DNA from: Escherichia phage 215Ecol030PP
Direction: 5' to 3' (one strand)
Sequence record: PP328843.1
DNA length: 64,000 nt
Part shown: positions 9,896 through 27,105 of the stretch, one piece after another
How the letters are laid out: every line of letters starts with the position of its first letter
Position numbering within the stretch: position 1 is the stretch's first letter
Made by a program: the position numbers and the translations under genes
Notes under the pieces: model-generated
Told to the model about the DNA's origin: nothing
The model's input: the letters and a program-made list of their open reading frames with translations, nothing else
Database searches by the model: none

Positions 9896-10114
9896 TTAAA
9901 TTTCCCACCAATTGCCATTTTCATCAATGAATTTAATCCAGTCATTTACTGACCACTTAGTTGTATCGCCTTTTGGAGTAACATTTAAAGTGTATAACCC
10001 TTGCTTAAAAAGCATTCGTTTGATATTCATATTTTCCTCAGCTGTAACGATAGCACTCGTTTGATTTACGTTTAGCAACTCGTTGAGAAGTATTATAATC
10101 AAAATCATCATCAA
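9896..10114 (-). CDS. hypothetical small protein (72 aa)
   Basis: ORF. Confidence 0.45.
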   Translation of the reverse strand: MMMILIIILLNELLNVNQTSAIVTAEENMNIKRMLFKQGLYTLNVTPKGDTTKWSVNDWIKFIDENGNWWEI

Positions 10115-10331
10115 TGTAAACTGATTTTTTCAACTTTCTTACTTCACTACGTAATTGACGATTTAGCTCATCTTTAACTTCTGAATCAATACCTTTCATT
10201 CTACGCCATTTATCTGAGCGAAAAATGTTTTCAACCATATCTTTATGACTTACACCATCAGGAGCTTTACGCTTTCCGAAATAGTCATAATCACGCACTT
10301 TTAAGTCTTTACGACGATACGTTTTACCCAT
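10038..10331 (-). CDS. hypothetical basic protein (about 97 aa from internal Met)
   Basis: ORF MGKTYRRKDLKVRDYDYFGKRK..., highly basic. Confidence 0.45.
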   Translation of the reverse strand: MGKTYRRKDLKVRDYDYFGKRKAPDGVSHKDMVENIFRSDKWRRMKGIDSEVKDELNRQLRSEVRKLKKSVYIDDDFDYNTSQRVAKRKSNECYRYS

Positions 10332-15430: not shown

Positions 15431-15934
15431 TCAAGTATTGTAAAACATTTGATGCAATCGCTTATATTGCCGAATCTTTTGGTCAGAAAAAGAAATTTGA
15501 TTTTCAAGCCATTCAATGTATTCTGCGGCAGCTTGCATCAGGTTACCTTCATAGCCATCGTTATTTTCTTGTGCAGCTAATTTAGCTAATGCGTATGAAA
15601 TACGTTCACCTTGAAAATCGGCTTTAGGCTTCTGAACAACTTGATTAGTTTGCTCTACAACTTCTTCAATTTCGCCATTTTCTACTGATTCAGTATTCCA
15701 CAAACACCAATACGTAATTGGTTTATCGTAGATGTTAATAATCTTTCCATCAGAAAGTTCAATTTCAATAATTCCAGTATCAGGTTCTATATCATCTTCA
15801 CATTCTTTTGCAAGTTCACGAACTTTAAAGACAGTACCTGCACTAAGTTCCGGCCAGTAATTACATAGCCCTGTATCAGCACGATTAATTCTAAACCACT
15901 TATCTACTGTAATCATGTCCCATCTCCACATCAA
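15431..15934 (-). CDS. hypothetical protein (167 aa; possibly the T4 pin-position gene)
   Basis: ORF between nrdC and 49; acidic central region; C-terminus duplicated in downstream small ORF. Confidence 0.5.
   Translation of the reverse strand: MMWRWDMITVDKWFRINRADTGLCNYWPELSAGTVFKVRELAKECEDDIEPDTGIIEIELSDGKIINIYDKPITYWCLWNTESVENGEIEEVVEQTNQVVQKPKADFQGERISYALAKLAAQENNDGYEGNLMQAAAEYIEWLENQISFSDQKIRQYKRLHQMFYNT
15433..15479. repeat. direct repeat copy B (about 47 bp)
   Basis: aagtattgtaaaacatttgatgcaatcgcttatattgccgaatc. Confidence 0.7.
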
Positions 15935-16688: not shown

Positions 16689-16931
16689 TTATTCCTTAAT
16701 TCCTAATACTTGTTTAAAAGTCTCGTCGTAATCAAGACTTTGGCCCGTTTGTTCTTTATGTTTGTATATAATATCACTTACTTCTGATAGCATATTTTTA
16801 TATGAACGAGTTAAAGCTGATTTAAGCACGCTGTATCTATCAGGAAATTTACCATGTTCATTATAATAAGCTATTGCTAATTCACGGACTGCCTTTTCAG
16901 CAGTCTCCATATATTCTTTACGCTTGGCCAT
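16689..16931 (-). CDS. hypothetical protein (about 81 aa from internal Met)
   Basis: [33 protein letters not shown]... Confidence 0.45.
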
Positions 16932-17235
16932 TTTCTTCTCGGTCAAATCGGTGTTTACAATGGCGACATTTATAACGAAGATTATTAGTCTGCCAATGGA
17001 CCAATTGCACCTGTTCAGTTCCACATTCAGGGCAATTAGGAACGTTTTTAGAAGCCCTTTCGCGACGTTCAACCATAACCATAATAGCATCCCAGGCTGG
17101 GGGTTTAAAATCTAAATCGTCACAGCCATGAATCTTTCCACGCATTTCCATATCATCTTCCTCACCAGCCATAATAATTTTAATTAGACTAGAATTACTT
17201 GAAGCTGCAATGTCTTCTAATAGACGCTTTTTCAT
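16918..17235 (-). CDS. zinc-ribbon protein (105 aa)
   Basis: C-terminal CPECG...(17)...CRHCKH four-cysteine ribbon. Confidence 0.5.
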
Positions 17236-18158
17236 TTCAATACCTCAATAGCATTACGTAAACCATTTGCTTTTGCATTAAGAGCTTTTAACAATTTGGT
17301 GTGTTCTGCAATTTGGGCTTCAACTTCAATCAAACGAGCATTGAGATATTCGCGTTCTTCACTCAGATTATCAACCTTTTCTACTTTAGGTTCTTTTACA
17401 ACTGGCTTATACGTATTAGGGTTCTTCAGTTTAATTAGAATGCGTGAACTGTATAACATTGAACCATTATCTTCGGTTTCGTCATACATTTCTACTACGT
17501 CCATAATTTTTAACATCATGCGAAGTTTATAAGACAACGAACGAATAGTTTTGTTGTGCTTATTAATTTCTCTAGCTGTCATGGTGCCGAGATTACGTGA
17601 GTAATAATAAGGAACCTGGATATTAATTAATACTGATGAACCACCTGGCTTGTGTGTTACTTCATCAGCAATAACCCAGTCCTTAACATGAACTGTATTT
17701 GTACGGTCATCACCCGCGGTAAACAGTTTGCGAGCATGCTTAAAAAGCATATTCACTTGGGTATTGAATTGACAAGCAAATTTATCAGCAAATTTAGTTT
17801 CAGGAATGGTAGATAACCAATCAGCCAAATGGGTCTTTTTAACATCGTTAACAATAGTAAATTCAACCAAATCGGTTATAGATGTCTCAGATTTAATAAA
17901 GCTCGGCTTCATAAAGTTTTCAATGTTATCACGAGCTACAGTAGAAGATAACATACGAGAACGTTTAAACCATTCAAGCAAATTGCCTAACGAATGAGAA
18001 TAAGCGTTTTGAGTATCTTTACAGATATGATTTTCCTGGCCAACATATTGAAGGAAATCACGAAGAATATTATTAATTACTGCTCTGTGTCCGATCTGAT
18101 AATTGCGGTGTTTAGTAATAAGACTGTCAAAATAATCAATATAATGTTTACGAGTCAT
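17232..18158 (-). CDS. hypothetical protein with C-terminal coiled coil
   Basis: About 308 aa from MTRKHYIDYF...; last 45 residues are a heptad coiled coil. Confidence 0.5.
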   Translation of the reverse strand: MTRKHYIDYFDSLITKHRNYQIGHRAVINNILRDFLQYVGQENHICKDTQNAYSHSLGNLLEWFKRSRMLSSTVARDNIENFMKPSFIKSETSITDLVEFTIVNDVKKTHLADWLSTIPETKFADKFACQFNTQVNMLFKHARKLFTAGDDRTNTVHVKDWVIADEVTHKPGGSSVLINIQVPYYYSRNLGTMTAREINKHNKTIRSLSYKLRMMLKIMDVVEMYDETEDNGSMLYSSRILIKLKNPNTYKPVVKEPKVEKVDNLSEEREYLNARLIEVEAQIAEHTKLLKALNAKANGLRNAIEVLK

Positions 18159-18186
18159 ATTAATCTCCTCAGTAGAAAGTAAGAAC

Positions 18187-18216
18187 ATTATACCACATCC
18201 TTGTGGCAAAGTAAAC
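18187..18216 (-). promoter_or_regulatory. T4-type early promoter
   Basis: Minus strand GTTTAC, 18-nt spacer, TGGTATAAT. Confidence 0.55.
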
Positions 18217-19238
18217 TAGTTCAGTGCATTTAGTGCGTTGTTCAGTTTAGAACGTTGCTTCGTAAGATTTTTGACTTTTTCTTGAGCTTTTTCCAGCATC
18301 TTTTCAGCTTCTAGCACTTCATTGGTCGCTTTAACGAGTTCATCATCTACTGCCTTAAGAGACTTCTCAATCGCATCCGCGTGCCATTTTTCAACAGGTT
18401 TAAGACTCGGATTTTCAATAGGAAGAAAATTCACTTTATTGAATTTCCATGCATCTTTATTACCTGAGCTATACATCCAAAATTTAGGATCGTTTGATGA
18501 GCAATTAGATAAATTTAAGTTATCTTGCACTTCCTGCTTTTTCTCTTGCGGGACTTCATCCTTTCTCAAAAAATCGTATTTAAATGAAACGATCATATCA
18601 AGTTCATACGTTGTTGTATGTTCCCAATTTCGCTCAAAATGAGGTAAAATCTTAGACTGAACAGCGGCAACAACATCCATATACTTAAATGCTTCTGTCA
18701 ACTGTGATTTAAGGCATTCACAAATTGAAAGAGAATTTTTTGTATTAGGTTTAAAGCTAATTCGTGCAGTTCTATTATTTTCTTTTAATGGTCTTACTTC
18801 CATCTGAAGAGTATAACCATCAAATTTCAGGTTCTTTAAGTTAATGTCAGAACCTTTTAATCGACTAGCCGTCGACAAAATTTGCTTTAATTGTTTACGG
18901 AATAGAGCAATAAATCTCCATTCAATACGATAATGATTTGGATTGAAAAATCCAGATGATAAATCGACCTTACTTTGACCAACGCCTTGAACAATCAAAG
19001 GATTTTTATAATCAATAGTTTTACAGAAATCGGTGAGCTGCTCACGAGCAGTCATTTGCGTAATATACCCTGCTTTATTAAAATTACGCACCCATTCACT
19101 GCTATTCTTATACTTAAAGTGATGAATAGTACGATTAACTTTATCAAGGTCTAAATTATTTTCACACAAAAATGTCATAACATCACGAGTATCGCTGGCA
19201 TTACGAACCATATCTTCAATTTGAGAACGAGTTTTCAT
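18216..19238 (-). CDS. hypothetical protein with C-terminal coiled coil (340 aa)
   Basis: ORF; C-terminal 50 residues heptad-rich. Confidence 0.5.
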   Translation of the reverse strand: MKTRSQIEDMVRNASDTRDVMTFLCENNLDLDKVNRTIHHFKYKNSSEWVRNFNKAGYITQMTAREQLTDFCKTIDYKNPLIVQGVGQSKVDLSSGFFNPNHYRIEWRFIALFRKQLKQILSTASRLKGSDINLKNLKFDGYTLQMEVRPLKENNRTARISFKPNTKNSLSICECLKSQLTEAFKYMDVVAAVQSKILPHFERNWEHTTTYELDMIVSFKYDFLRKDEVPQEKKQEVQDNLNLSNCSSNDPKFWMYSSGNKDAWKFNKVNFLPIENPSLKPVEKWHADAIEKSLKAVDDELVKATNEVLEAEKMLEKAQEKVKNLTKQRSKLNNALNALN

Positions 19239-19246
19239 GGTGTTCC

Positions 19247-20155
19247 TTAAGATTTAAGTAAATCAACAATTTTAATTAACTTTTCACGCTCAGATTTAGC
19301 TTTACTACTCAATCCAGATAGTCTGAAAATTTCATCGTCATATTGTTGAATAGAAATATTCAGCTCTTCAATCTGCTTATTAAAATAATCAATTTGTTCA
19401 GAATGTTTTTCGTTACTACGAACTGGTACAGGTTTTGTAGGCAATTTGGTTGAACTGGATTCATCCGGGCGATAAATTAAAATACAACTTGAACCAATCG
19501 GGCATTTTGCCCCAGATGAATATTCTAATGTTCCAGCTTCTTTTAAAACTTCAAAAGCCAAACAGAGATGATGCCCCATATTAACATAATCTGTAGAGCG
19601 AGCTCTGATGTAATAATCATCTCCACGAGTACTAAATTTAAAGCATTTAAGGTCTTCTGTATTATTGGTCTTAAAAATCATTTGTTTATCTAGACCTTTA
19701 GCTAATCGAGCGCCTAATGCTAATAATCGTCGTTGATTTTCCCACAAATCCGCAATCATTTGGTCAAATGATAATTTCGGCATTAGTCTACCATAAAGGT
19801 CATATCCTTTATTATAATTGCGAAGGATTTCACTCGCATTAATACGAGACAACGCTCCAATTTTATTAAGGGCTTTCATGATGCGATTAGATAAACCCAT
19901 TCCAGATCCGTTTGTTCGTTGCAAATGTTTATCTAACCCAAACCCAATATCAACTTTAAATTTATCTAAAATTTCAGCATGAACATCTCTGTCAATAACA
20001 TTCAAATCCAAAGTTGGGTTAAATCTATGAAAAAATTTATCTGGCTCTCCACGACGAAGTACAGTCCATTCATTTAATTTTTTATTAACTAAAGATTTAA
20101 TTACTGCATTGACATTATTAATTACTACTGACATATTTTCCTCACTCAATTTCAA
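19247..20155 (-). CDS. hypothetical protein with C-terminal coiled coil (302 aa)
   Basis: ORF; C-terminal coiled coil. Confidence 0.5.
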   Translation of the reverse strand: MKLSEENMSVVINNVNAVIKSLVNKKLNEWTVLRRGEPDKFFHRFNPTLDLNVIDRDVHAEILDKFKVDIGFGLDKHLQRTNGSGMGLSNRIMKALNKIGALSRINASEILRNYNKGYDLYGRLMPKLSFDQMIADLWENQRRLLALGARLAKGLDKQMIFKTNNTEDLKCFKFSTRGDDYYIRARSTDYVNMGHHLCLAFEVLKEAGTLEYSSGAKCPIGSSCILIYRPDESSSTKLPTKPVPVRSNEKHSEQIDYFNKQIEELNISIQQYDDEIFRLSGLSSKAKSEREKLIKIVDLLKS

Positions 20156-20549
20156 TTTTACTAAATATACAGAATAAGATGGAACAGACTATATAAGCAC
20201 CACACACAGATTGAACTAATACCATTCCAAAGAACCAAACAATATTATCAAACAATGTCTGTTTTACGTCGAAAGGACGTAAACTTACAGTAATATTATC
20301 GCCTTTTTCTATTGAAGAATACATCTCTGGGGAAATATATTCACTAAATCTATAACCGTCTTTGAGTTCATATACGGCAATAAACGATAAACTAGACCCC
20401 TTTCCTTGAGTTCCTATAAGGGTATTAACTACAGTAACATCATAATCTTTATAATGCATATAATCATTAATTGCATAATAACCATATGCAACTACTACAC
20501 ATAAACAACATATCAATAAATTCAATCTTTTAATTATCAACTGTTTCAT
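20142..20549 (-). CDS. membrane protein (135 aa)
   Basis: N-terminal and C-terminal hydrophobic helices. Confidence 0.5.
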   Translation of the reverse strand: MKQLIIKRLNLLICCLCVVVAYGYYAINDYMHYKDYDVTVVNTLIGTQGKGSSLSFIAVYELKDGYRFSEYISPEMYSSIEKGDNITVSLRPFDVKQTLFDNIVWFFGMVLVQSVCGAYIVCSILFCIFSKIEIE

Positions 20550-20604
20550 AATAATCTCAATTAAAAGGGCTTAGAACCATTATACCATCCTTGGTATAAA
20601 GCGG

Positions 20605-21132
20605 TTATGCGAGTACCGTCTTTAACCGTTCTTCAAACTTCCGAAGAGTATTTTGGCGTTCAGCTCTTTGCTTTTTGTAAGTTTCAATACGCTCTGAAAT
20701 GAGAGTGTATCGTTCATTTACTGATTCTTTCATAAAATCAGGAATTTCACGAGAAGCTTTAATCTCGTCAAATTTATCAATAACAGCTTGCTCTTCAGCA
20801 ATTAAGTTATCATACATCAAAATATCTTTCTTGATGAACTCAATATCTTCTTGAGTTACACGAGATAATTTAGATGCTTTATCCTTTTTGTACTGTTCAT
20901 TAGTATCACGAGACCAGTGTAATGTACGATTTTTATTCGTATTTTTGTAAATTTCTACAATACCAATCTCATCGATAATAACGATCCAATTCCAACGAGA
21001 TTTGTAAATTTGTCCTCCATCAACCGTGATTTCACCTCCAATTGAGATGTCATTAAAGAACTTGCTTTGAGCTTCAGATTTAAATTTACCATCATTGTAG
21101 TTTACCAAGTTGAAAATATCTTTAGCATTCAT
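20605..21132 (-). CDS. hypothetical protein with C-terminal coiled coil (about 175 aa)
   Basis: Start at MNAKDIFNLVNYN... preceded by GAGGAACAGAAA RBS. Confidence 0.5.
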   Translation of the reverse strand: MNAKDIFNLVNYNDGKFKSEAQSKFFNDISIGGEITVDGGQIYKSRWNWIVIIDEIGIVEIYKNTNKNRTLHWSRDTNEQYKKDKASKLSRVTQEDIEFIKKDILMYDNLIAEEQAVIDKFDEIKASREIPDFMKESVNERYTLISERIETYKKQRAERQNTLRKFEERLKTVLA

Positions 21133-21160: not shown

Positions 21161-21190
21161 ATAGTACCACAAAGGAACAGTCTTGTAAAC
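21161..21190 (-). promoter_or_regulatory. T4-type early promoter
   Basis: Minus strand GTTTAC, 18-nt spacer, TACTAT. Confidence 0.55.
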
Positions 21191-21596: not shown

Positions 21597-22565
21597 TTAT
21601 TTCAGAAGAGTAACCTCAGCAATTTCTTCCCAACCGTTTTTGTCGGTCATAATAAAGTCAGCAAGATAAAGTGCAGTACGCAGTGAAACATTGCGTAAAC
21701 GGTTAACATTGACTTTCATCCATGATAATGCTTTATAAGTTTCTTCATCAGAAAGACCGCGCTTTTGCATCATGTCGGTTGAAAGAATAACATCTTCAAC
21801 CCTGACCATAATTTCTTCATTAGTGTGAACACCCAAATCTAAATAAACTGAGCGGGACACTAATGCTTGTAAATGTGGAGCGAGTTTAGTACCACGGTCT
21901 AATTCGCGGTCAATATCAACGTTTGTGATAAAAACAATCGTTCCTTTAAATTCAAACTCACGCTCAATGCCTTTTTCTTCTAAGTAAGAAGATGCAGTGC
22001 TCCAGCAGACTTTACGGGTCTCTCCAGTGTCCAGAGCAGCTTTCAGAAGATTAAGAATGTCCATATCAGAGAAAACATCCACATCATCAATCAAAAGGAC
22101 AGAATTCTCTTCACGATTATTCCAAAGCTGCTCATAAAGACCGATACCGGAGATTTTACCATTAATGCTTTTATACTCAATGTATCCAATATCATTTGCT
22201 TTATTCAAAGCTTTATCTAAAGAATACGTTTTACCAATACCTGCCGCACCAGAGATAATTAATGAACGAATGTTTCCGTTAATAATACCATTCGTCATCA
22301 TTCCCATAACATTAAATCTTTTATTAATGCGGGTTTTCATATCTTCATATGATTCTTTAACTTCTTCAACTTTTACACCATCATATGAAATGTCTGATTT
22401 GTAAACCCAAACACCGCGACGCTTACCGTCAATTTCAACAAAAACTTTACCATCTCCTTGTGCATCTACCGGAGCATTATCTGGGAACCATTCACCTAAG
22501 AGCTCAAAAGTTCCAGAGATTTCTTTACCGAAGTAGATACCCTTATTGATAGTTACAGTTTTCAT
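21597..22565 (-). CDS. P-loop NTPase (about 322 aa)
   Basis: Walker A GAAGIGKT and Walker B LLIDDVD. Confidence 0.6.
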   Translation of the reverse strand: MKTVTINKGIYFGKEISGTFELLGEWFPDNAPVDAQGDGKVFVEIDGKRRGVWVYKSDISYDGVKVEEVKESYEDMKTRINKRFNVMGMMTNGIINGNIRSLIISGAAGIGKTYSLDKALNKANDIGYIEYKSINGKISGIGLYEQLWNNREENSVLLIDDVDVFSDMDILNLLKAALDTGETRKVCWSTASSYLEEKGIEREFEFKGTIVFITNVDIDRELDRGTKLAPHLQALVSRSVYLDLGVHTNEEIMVRVEDVILSTDMMQKRGLSDEETYKALSWMKVNVNRLRNVSLRTALYLADFIMTDKNGWEEIAEVTLLK

Positions 22566-22601
22566 TTTATTCTCCAATTTCACATTTGTTTTGATAGGGT
22601 A

Positions 22602-22631
22602 ATAGTATCACACTACTACCCTTCTGTAAAC
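22602..22631 (-). promoter_or_regulatory. T4-type early promoter
   Basis: Minus strand GTTTAC, 18-nt spacer, TGATACTAT. Confidence 0.55.
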
Positions 22632-23081: not shown

Positions 23082-23111
23082 ATAGTACCATAAAGCTTTA
23101 TGCTTGTAAAC
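23082..23111 (-). promoter_or_regulatory. T4-type early promoter
   Basis: Minus strand GTTTAC, 18-nt spacer, TACTAT. Confidence 0.5.
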
Positions 23112-26668: not shown

Positions 26669-26863
26669 TCAGTTTTCATTGTTCCACCTAATCATTTCAA
26701 GATATTGAACTAACTTAGCTTTAGATTTATCCAAATCCTTTTTAGCTGCTTCTATACCATCGTATGAATATCCTTCACAATGCTCAACTGCTAATTGATA
26801 TGAATCTATTTCAATATCACGTGCTAATTTAATGATTTTTTCAAACTGTTCACGTGTTAGCAT
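26669..26863 (-). CDS. hypothetical small protein (64 aa)
   Basis: ORF. Confidence 0.45.
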   Translation of the reverse strand: MLTREQFEKIIKLARDIEIDSYQLAVEHCEGYSYDGIEAAKKDLDKSKAKLVQYLEMIRWNNEN

Positions 26864-26865
26864 AA

Positions 26866-27105
26866 TTAAACTCTCGTATTATGATCGATAATTTCATCAA
26901 GAAACATATCTAACGCTTCTAAAGCATTATCAACTTTAGCTTCAAATTTTTCAATACCTTTATTTGCAATGCCTGCCGAAAACCAAGCAAAGTCACTAAG
27001 TTCCTCATCTGCTTTACGAATTGAAGCCACTAATTCCTTGATTTTATCCGCTTGTTCGATACTAATCATTATTCCACCACATATGAAAGAGAGAACATTG
27101 CACAC
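26866..27105 (-). CDS. hypothetical small protein (79 aa)
   Basis: ORF. Confidence 0.45.

Follow-up and report, generated by a model that had tools for sequence, protein, structure and literature searches.

An orthologue of the Dsr1 counter-defence gene nrdC.5 in a tandem array of diverged paralogues with coiled-coil-type tails in a T4-like Escherichia phage

The closest described relative of the locus reported here is nrdC.5 of phage T4. An evolved T4 clone with deletions could not infect ECOR17 because of Dsr1, and MG1655 carrying dsr1 became infectable again once T4 nrdC.5, which is termed an early gene in the same paper, was expressed from a plasmid (Srikant, Guegler and Laub, eLife 2022, PMC9391042). 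Dsr1 and Avs7 are reported to share a sensor domain that is triggered by a phage major capsid protein (2026 preprint, bioRxiv 10.64898/2026.01.04.697583). In the literature searched, no phage factor against Dsr1 other than NrdC.5 has been reported, and no later work on its mechanism or on its sister genes was found. Here we analysed a stretch of 64,000 nucleotides from Escherichia phage 215Ecol030PP (sequence record PP328843.1; the whole stretch is called the window below), in which the orthologue of nrdC.5 is one of four open reading frames (ORFs) that end in a heptad-repeat tail. We describe nrdC.3 and nrdC.5 of the window, nrdC.4 of T4 and, probably, nrdC.6 as tandem, strongly diverged paralogues of one Straboviridae accessory protein family.

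The window belongs to a T4-like phage (Tequatrovirus), and the region is the nrdC-to-tk hyperplastic early region of such phages. The 6.5 kb around the four ORFs showed 97% identity to Escherichia phage ECML-134 in a nucleotide comparison and matched 774 phage records, nearly all from T4-like enterobacterial phages. From a comparison with the annotated T4 genome, in which synteny and identity both support the assignments, the four ORFs are nrdC.3, nrdC.5, nrdC.6 and nrdC.8.

17232-18158, minus strand: nrdC.3, 308 residues; 60% identity to T4 nrdC.3 (blastp E 1e-133); phrog_1435
18216-19238, minus strand: nrdC.5, 340 residues; 93% identity to T4 NrdC.5 over 340 residues; phrog_2351
19247-20134, minus strand: nrdC.6, 295 residues; 97.7% identity to T4 nrdC.6 over 259 residues; phrog_2257
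20142-20549, minus strand: nrdC.7, 135 residues; 91% identity to T4 nrdC.7; phrog_2547; predicted membrane protein from the T4 annotation
20605-21132, minus strand: nrdC.8, 175 residues; 99% identity to T4 nrdC.8; phrog_2274

The initial annotation had presented the four ORFs as a consecutive run of early genes. All four are present at the coordinates it gave, on the minus strand, but nrdC.7, which is outside the tail pattern, separates nrdC.6 from nrdC.8, and the third ORF most likely starts at the ATG at 20134 (295 residues, as in the homologues) rather than at the TTG at 20155. nrdC.5 matched Pfam DUF7235 with 423.6 bits (cut-off 30), residues 1-340 aligning to positions 1-307 of the 307 of the profile, and it lies between nrdC.3/nrdC.4 and nrdC.6 as in T4. 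It is thus the orthologue of the early, non-essential host-range gene of T4, with the same neighbours, and nrdC.3, nrdC.6 and nrdC.8 are the orthologues of the hypothetical T4 genes of the same names. T4 nrdC.4 (333 residues), which lies between nrdC.3 and nrdC.5 in T4, is missing from the window. PHROGs place each gene in a separate family of unknown function, and homologues of nrdC.3 and nrdC.6 carry the precomputed Pfam labels PF26897 and PF26899, respectively.

The relationship between the heads of these proteins was not visible by plain blastp among the window proteins, which gave no pair below E 0.4, and profiles were needed to show paralogy. Window nrdC.3 matched T4 nrdC.4 by blastp with E 1e-7 over 271 residues, and their heads were linked by hhalign with 98% probability (E 2.7e-13). 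The nrdC.4 and nrdC.5 profiles were linked with 78% probability (E 1.8e-5) by the heads alone and with 83% at full length. From these profile comparisons, the heads of nrdC.3, nrdC.4 and nrdC.5 are homologous. When the profiles of these three families were merged, the match to the nrdC.6 profile reached 70.6% (E 3.9e-5), and it sat on two blocks, F-[KN]-x-x-[GR]-x-[LI]-[ST]-x-x-x-A-x-x-x-[LI]-x-N-[FY] and a helix ending in [AS]-[RK]-L-x-x-G-x-D. Decoys for the merged profile gave P of at least 0.11 (reversed alignments), at least 0.055 (the other 98 window ORFs) and 0.39 (nrdC.8). A MAFFT alignment of 24 sequences, including proteins of Citrobacter phage Merlin and Acinetobacter phage Acj61, contained four collinear blocks in all members. 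In the AlphaFold2 models of nrdC.6 and nrdC.3, the C-terminal halves had the same order of elements, namely a long helix, a beta hairpin, a helix, a beta hairpin, a disordered linker and the tail. These results suggest that nrdC.6 is probably a remote member of the nrdC.3/4/5 family. The N-terminal domains had been described as unrelated-looking by the initial annotation, and this is contradicted for three of the four proteins by the hhalign comparisons, the merged profile and the blocks of the 24 sequences; the head of nrdC.8 is indeed unrelated.

Each of the four ORFs terminates in a charged, Pro-free, heptad-periodic stretch, and those of nrdC.3, nrdC.5 and nrdC.6 follow a Pro-rich linker.

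17235-17378, minus strand: nrdC.3 tail, 48 residues, seven unbroken heptads; coordinates verified by translation
17379-17426, minus strand: nrdC.3 Pro/Lys-rich linker, preceding the tail
18219-18383, minus strand: nrdC.5 tail, 55 residues, unbroken heptads, ending in KQRSKLNNALNALN; coordinates verified by translation
19250-19411, minus strand: nrdC.6 tail, helix 242-271, SGLSS break and helix 277-294, ending in EREKLIKIVDLLKS
19412-19471, minus strand: nrdC.6 disordered Pro-rich linker, preceding the tail
20608-20733, minus strand: nrdC.8 tail proper, 42 residues

Heptad periodicity was scored with a home-made measure from well-known position preferences, taking the best 28-residue window in all seven registers. 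The scores were 0.88 for nrdC.3, 1.00 for nrdC.5, 0.85 for nrdC.6 and 0.88 for nrdC.8 (z = 3.5-5.5), and of 200 shuffles made for each protein, 0-1 reached the observed value. Scores of 0.35-0.67 were obtained for the neighbouring nrdC.7 (0.35), nrdC.9 and nrdC.10 and were not significant. When the last 45 residues were scored in 100 non-overlapping ATG ORFs of the window, nrdC.5, nrdC.3 and nrdC.8 took the first to third places and nrdC.6 the sixth, the nrdC.5 tail having the top heptad score of the 100. For a canonical coiled coil at least 4-5 contiguous heptads were required, free of helix breakers and with hydrophobic residues at a and d, and seven were found in nrdC.3, nrdC.5 and nrdC.6 and about six in nrdC.8. 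The a and d positions of the nrdC.3, nrdC.5 and nrdC.6 tails are occupied by L, I, V or A, with one or two polar exceptions. AlphaFold2 predicted tail helices at residues 242-271 and 277-294 of nrdC.6 after a disordered linker at 222-241 (predicted local distance difference test (pLDDT) 78 for the model, 70-91 for the tail blocks), and a single tail helix at 266-307 of nrdC.3 after a low-confidence linker (tail blocks 58-85); in the models of these two proteins the tails are thus helical, as expected of a canonical coiled coil. Sub-threshold matches of the tails in Pfam, NCBIfam and the PDB were all to coiled-coil families (CENP-F zipper, prefoldin, matrilin, Mer2 and lamin). These results indicate that the four tails are real coiled-coil-type C-terminal helices. 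The initial annotation had given all of them as charged heptad helices of 40-50 residues. Heptad periodicity holds for all four and is rarely matched by shuffles, but the nrdC.8 tail is shorter, at about 36-42 residues, and even its best register places two Arg in the core. The nrdC.6 tail has a break at RLSGLSS and, judging from the model, may form a helical hairpin instead of one continuous coil.

The tails other than that of nrdC.8 also agree in their register. In nrdC.3, T4 nrdC.4, nrdC.5 and their orthologues from Mosigvirus, Dhakavirus and Gaprivervirus, unbroken heptads extend over about 48-57 residues and start right after the Pro-rich linker. Counted from the C-terminus, the register is identical in nrdC.3, nrdC.4 and nrdC.5, the final Leu being at d and the final Lys or Asn at e, and the nrdC.6 tail has the same terminal L(d)-K(e) motif. 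The nrdC.3, nrdC.4, nrdC.5 and nrdC.6 families share the tail end L-x-x-A-[LIV]-x-[AL]-L-[KN], and nrdC.5, nrdC.6 and Merlin gp91 in addition have an Arg at a common a position near the end, within the motif [QER]-R-x-K-L-x-x-A/I-[LIV]-x-[AL]-L-[KN]. The tails of the families were also compared by an end-anchored, ungapped BLOSUM62 score at each of 15 shifts, from 0 to 14 residues. Five of the six pairs among nrdC.3, nrdC.4, nrdC.5 and nrdC.6 scored highest at shift 0, and secondary peaks appeared at 7 and 14. All pairs with nrdC.8 had a strongly negative score at shift 0. The superfamily proposed here for nrdC.3, nrdC.4, nrdC.5 and nrdC.6 is thus characterised by a Pro-rich linker and a heptad helix of about 48-55 residues whose register and end motif are shared, and Merlin gp91 and Acj61 p120 and p121 show the same features. 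The initial annotation would have been refuted by tails with no common register. Such a register, anchored at the C-terminus, exists in nrdC.3, nrdC.5 and nrdC.6, and nrdC.8 is out of it. Across four genera the tails are conserved, and in most orthologue comparisons more so than the heads: identities were 56-69% for the tail against 24-41% for the head in nrdC.6 orthologues, and 66-88% against 53-62% in nrdC.3 orthologues.

Because the heads are homologous and the tails share length, register and end motif, we regard the genes as a tandem paralogue array with an ancestral head-linker-coiled-coil architecture. In the ancestor, a helical N-terminal part would have been followed by a beta-beta-alpha-beta-beta unit, and a flexible, Pro-rich linker some 15-20 residues long would have connected this head to a C-terminal heptad helix of about 48-55 residues. 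No direct DNA repeats were found between the tails, which argues against recent gene conversion. The absence of such repeats, together with the failure of tail profiles to detect other families, indicates that head and tail diverged together from one ancestor after tandem duplication.

nrdC.8 stands apart from this family. A full HMMER search of 1.8 billion representative proteins gave 37 representative relatives of nrdC.8, most of them matching only via an N-terminal domain of about 90 residues with the motif L-x-x-x-N-N-G-x-F-K-S-E-K-Q ... G-V-V ... W-x-R, and nearly all had a charged, heptad-scoring C-terminal part. phrog_2274 was matched by 34 of the 34 aligned family members. Comparison with the merged nrdC.3+4+5 profile gave no link (hhalign P 0.39), so that nrdC.8 falls outside the superfamily, and a Pfam search with distant nrdC.8 relatives and a PDB profile search returned generic coiled-coil matches only. 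By these sequence comparisons nrdC.8 is an unrelated small early protein family with a helical tail of its own, whose likeness to the other tails is generic.

The architecture extends to other Straboviridae. A Foldseek search of predicted viral structures with the nrdC.6 model returned uncharacterised proteins of 300-335 residues with 13-17% identity and probability 0.98-1.0, from five other T4-like phages (Enterobacter phage IME523, Pectobacterium phage PM2, Acinetobacter phages fHyAci03 and Acj61, and Citrobacter phage Merlin). In Acj61, the interval between nrdC and nrdC.10 holds p121 (304 residues, the length of the Foldseek match) and the adjacent p120, and in Merlin the same interval holds gp91 (334 residues). 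All three end in a Pro-rich linker and a heptad tail, the end of Merlin gp91 being ...RRQKLASAVEALNE. Since the Acj61 and Merlin proteins share the architecture, the head-linker-tail arrangement is old within the Straboviridae. The family profile hidden Markov models (HMMs) found nothing among the Acj61 proteins, and single-sequence hhalign of Merlin gp91 and Acj61 p120 and p121 against the family profiles was not significant (P at least 0.0017).

In domain searches, residues 29-85 of NrdC.3 (17904-18074) gave sub-threshold matches to the tyrosine-recombinase SAM-like core-binding domain (Pfam E 0.074; NCBIfam E 9.6e-4 and 0.011), which overlap the most conserved head motif of the family. An N-terminal SAM-like domain in nrdC.3 was not confirmed, as it was matched by only 2 of the 24 members and a PDB profile search gave designed helical repeats only. 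NCBIfam returned nothing further of use beyond the SAM-like and coiled-coil matches, and the only PADLOC match, between BrxC and the tail of T4 nrdC.4 (E 0.0044), was marginal. Many GenBank phage records label nrdC.3 to nrdC.11 as thioredoxin, with up to 11 such genes per locus, and one 2026 paper discusses nrdC.8 as a nucleotide reductase; the label is evidently derived from the gene name, and the discussion apparently from the name alone. Searches of Pfam, PHROGs and NCBIfam with these proteins gave no thioredoxin or reductase match.

Phages differ both in which genes of the array they have and in the alleles of these genes, a pattern shared with arms-race genes. At 18148-18225 (minus strand) the window nrdC.3 starts with the first codons of nrdC.4, behind the nrdC.4 promoter and leader.

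18158-18148, minus strand: nrdC.4/nrdC.3 junction ATGACTCGTAA, where the nrdC.4 5' end is joined in frame to the nrdC.3 body

The 81 nucleotides ending in ATGACTCGTAA are 100% identical to the 5' region of T4 nrdC.4, and beyond the junction the sequence matches T4 nrdC.3, with 42 of 45 and then 48 of 60 nucleotides identical. From this precise junction, nrdC.4 was therefore lost by recombination at the 8-nucleotide microhomology ACTCGTAA within the paralogous 5' ends. About 1,050 additional bases are present at the junction in ECML-134, the closest relative, which fits an intact nrdC.4, and a deletion of this kind was documented in T4 (PMC9391042). The nrdC.3 allele is 60% identical to T4, against 91-99% for the flanking genes, and 80% identical to a Mosigvirus copy (Shigella phage JK42), which suggests allelic replacement or exchange across genera. 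In the T4 reference nrdC.6 (NC_000866, about 9990-10200; 275 residues), compared with window positions 19247-19400, a 1-nucleotide deletion (CTGAATATT to CTG-ATATT) frameshifts the tail away. The T4 DNA downstream of the frameshift, annotated as intergenic, still encodes the nrdC.6 tail almost unchanged, and another T4 record, KJ477686, matched the full 295-residue window nrdC.6 in a single tblastn alignment. Two further rearrangements were seen in these families. nrdC.6 of Shigella phage Sf25 contains an in-frame internal duplication of residues 176-258, whose junction codon (…KQIEEL) is the T4 frameshift site, and a 299-residue database protein is a chimera of nrdC.5 residues 146-272 and nrdC.3 from about residue 141, joined at a short FN..VN similarity.

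A promoter scan fitted the PeSL consensus for the T4/PST pair, TTTACW-N17-TAYWAT (PMC4122927), at four sites; the 7-bp stem at 18208-18191 was found by the scan and the palindromes of the other spacers by eye.

18215-18187, minus strand: PeSL-type early promoter with stem-loop, upstream of nrdC.3, TTTACT-N17-TATAAT
21161-21189, minus strand: PeSL-type early promoter, upstream of nrdC.8, TTTACA-N17-TACTAT
22602-22630, minus strand: PeSL-type site, upstream of nrdC.10, fitting the consensus
23082-23110, minus strand: PeSL-type site, upstream of nrdC.11, fitting the consensus

The site at 23082-23110 is closely preceded by a strong terminator-like hairpin (23162-23140). The neighbourhood holds further counter-defence or host-takeover genes, namely gp49.2, which inhibits OLD (PMC13096335), and pin, which the T4 annotation gives as a Lon inhibitor. 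The ORF at 15431-15931 (minus strand), probably pin by its position beside gene 49, has a moderately heptad-like C-terminal stretch (residues 131-158) with a score of 0.75, the fifth of the 100 ORFs, and two small ORFs at 26669-27069 have a heptad score similar to it. Among the other neighbours, nrdC.10 (21597-22583, minus strand) gave weak Pfam matches to P-loop, AAA and novel-STAND NTPase families (E 6e-5 to 7e-3), and nrdC.2 (16918-17235, minus strand) has a C-terminal zinc-ribbon signature, with several zinc-ribbon families matching in Pfam (E 1e-4 to 1e-2).

We consider it fairly probable that the array is a diversifying family of counter-defence paralogues with an oligomerising tail. The paralogues would be made early, from the PeSL-type early promoters. 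The fast-evolving head of each would bind one host immunity protein, the target system of nrdC.5 being Dsr1, a SIR2 NADase, and the slowly evolving tail would make the inhibitor dimeric or of higher order, so that it binds oligomeric immune sensors with avidity. As heads were duplicated and diverged, the copies would be retargeted to other defences. As the Dsr1 sensor responds to a late capsid protein, the simplest mechanism would be that the inhibitor, being made early, has already occupied or disabled the sensor when the late trigger arrives. That the proteins bind directly, that the tail oligomerises them and that nrdC.3, nrdC.4, nrdC.6 and nrdC.8 have a counter-defence role are predictions.

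Several results weigh against this interpretation. The functional data cover nrdC.5 only; they are genetic, were obtained with the T4 allele rather than with that of this phage, and do not address binding. The link between nrdC.4 and nrdC.5 drops to 51% with larger alignments and a permissive setting (over all comparisons 51-83%, E 1e-5 to 1.5e-4). The membership of nrdC.6 is probable rather than proven, its comparisons with the single-family profiles giving P 0.0015-0.056 and no link, though always collinear. The AlphaFold2 model of nrdC.3 is poor (pLDDT 55), so that the head structures are comparable only by the order of secondary-structure elements, and in a Foldseek search of BFVD with this poor model the overlap with the nrdC.6 matches was not above noise. 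Leave-one-family-out tail HMMs did not recover the omitted family (E at least 0.005, at wrong positions), and hhalign of the tails alone gave 35% probability at most; the homology of the tails consequently rests on length, register and end motif and not on sequence statistics. Finally, the T4 reference nrdC.6 lacks the tail, and this tail is therefore dispensable for laboratory growth.

Of the other explanations, the one that survives best is that the tails all dock onto a single partner, for example a chaperone or protease of the host or another early protein of the phage, or that the paralogues hetero-oligomerise via their tails. The greater conservation of the tails than of the heads extends to polar positions (DDEIFRLSGL in nrdC.6 and the shared a-position Arg of nrdC.5, nrdC.6 and Merlin gp91), the families have their register and end motif in common, and the possible hairpin of the nrdC.6 tail, as opposed to a canonical coiled coil, also points this way. 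On the other hand, a run of seven regular heptads with a Leu/Ile/Val/Ala core ordinarily indicates self-association, and the tails differ between families enough that a single partner is not obviously favoured. We regard these possibilities as unlikely, though not negligible. A speculative and rather improbable form of the same idea is that the tails are a common assembly or docking code, with which mixed-paralogue oligomers would form a multivalent anti-immunity hub or all paralogues would address one partner, each head acting against a different host sensor of late phage proteins, such as sensors related to those of Dsr1 and Avs7. In that case the array would be a retargetable inhibitor scaffold, family-wide across the Straboviridae.

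It is also doubtful that the family is not generally one of counter-defence, with members except nrdC.5 having other host-takeover roles, for example nucleic-acid binding by a DNA-binding head that is dimerised by the tail. The SAM-like matches at the nrdC.3 N-terminus point in this direction, and one member only has a demonstrated defence target. The matches, however, are confined to two members and were not reproduced by the PDB profile search, and the genes, none of them essential, differ between phages in presence and allele and are located amid known counter-defence genes.

The initial annotation had likened the ORFs to modular toxins and effectors, with a shared C-terminal oligomerisation or targeting module on different effector heads. 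In this model, recombination would have joined a common tail to heads of unrelated origin, as in polymorphic toxins. The tails are alike while the heads look unrelated by eye and in plain blastp, PeSL recombination cassettes flank genes in the region, and nrdC.8 does combine an unrelated head with a heptad tail. Against this, the heads are homologous by profile comparison, the tails have no similarity at the DNA level and their profiles miss the other families, tail and head divergence run parallel within each orthologous group, and the nrdC.8 tail is out of register and inherent to its own family. A module exchanged among unrelated effectors is thus not supported, and we hold this origin to be very improbable; the idea of a constant tail under variable heads was right in spirit, since the heads diverge much faster than the tails. 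That the heptads are a structurally meaningless by-product of AT-rich coding rich in Lys, Glu, Asn and Ile has next to no likelihood, for although the genome has 33-36% G+C and 8 of the 100 window ORFs score at least 0.8 somewhere in the protein, composition-preserving shuffles almost never attain the scores, the C-terminal ranks are 1, 2, 3 and 6 of 100, the tails are conserved across four genera, and AlphaFold2 predicts helices.

The analysis provides a domain map for dissecting NrdC.5, for example by tail deletion and tail swaps, and makes the sister genes, like their counterparts in T4-like phages of Citrobacter, Pectobacterium, Enterobacter and Acinetobacter, candidate inhibitors of other defences. 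It also corrects the widespread thioredoxin mis-annotation, and the loss of nrdC.4 is a clean natural case of paralogue deletion via microhomology recombination in a phage accessory region.

Compared with known systems, the locus is nearest to T4 NrdC.5 itself, for which PMC9391042 reports genetic rescue and does not treat domains, a coiled-coil tail or paralogy with nrdC.3, nrdC.4 and nrdC.6. T4 nrdC.3, nrdC.4, nrdC.6 and nrdC.8 are listed as separate families in the databases, whereas nrdC.3, nrdC.4, nrdC.5 and probably nrdC.6 are joined in one superfamily here. DSAD1 of phage SPbeta, which inhibits the SIR2 protein DSR2, is comparable in outline, as a phage protein that blocks a SIR2 NADase triggered by a late structural protein; the trigger is the tail tube for DSR2, as against the capsid protein for Dsr1. 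No relationship to DSAD1 in sequence or fold was detectable, which places these proteins outside a DSAD1-like group. The spacers before nrdC.3, nrdC.8, nrdC.10 and nrdC.11 resemble the PeSL cassettes of T4-type hyperplastic regions (PMC2839356, PMC4122927) in their internal palindrome, but the loss of nrdC.4 crossed over in the 8-nucleotide coding microhomology and not within a PeSL. Polymorphic or modular toxins and the T4 internal proteins with their capsid-targeting sequence likewise combine a constant short module with a variable part, the latter having counter-defence roles: IPI acts against GmrSD, and IPIII has been implicated (PMC9391042). In those systems unrelated cargoes carry the shared module, which recombination passes between them, whereas here whole proteins are paralogous and no exchange is visible. 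The array is thus no new kind of system, and it is already well established that phage hyperplastic regions contain diversifying counter-defence genes in tandem.

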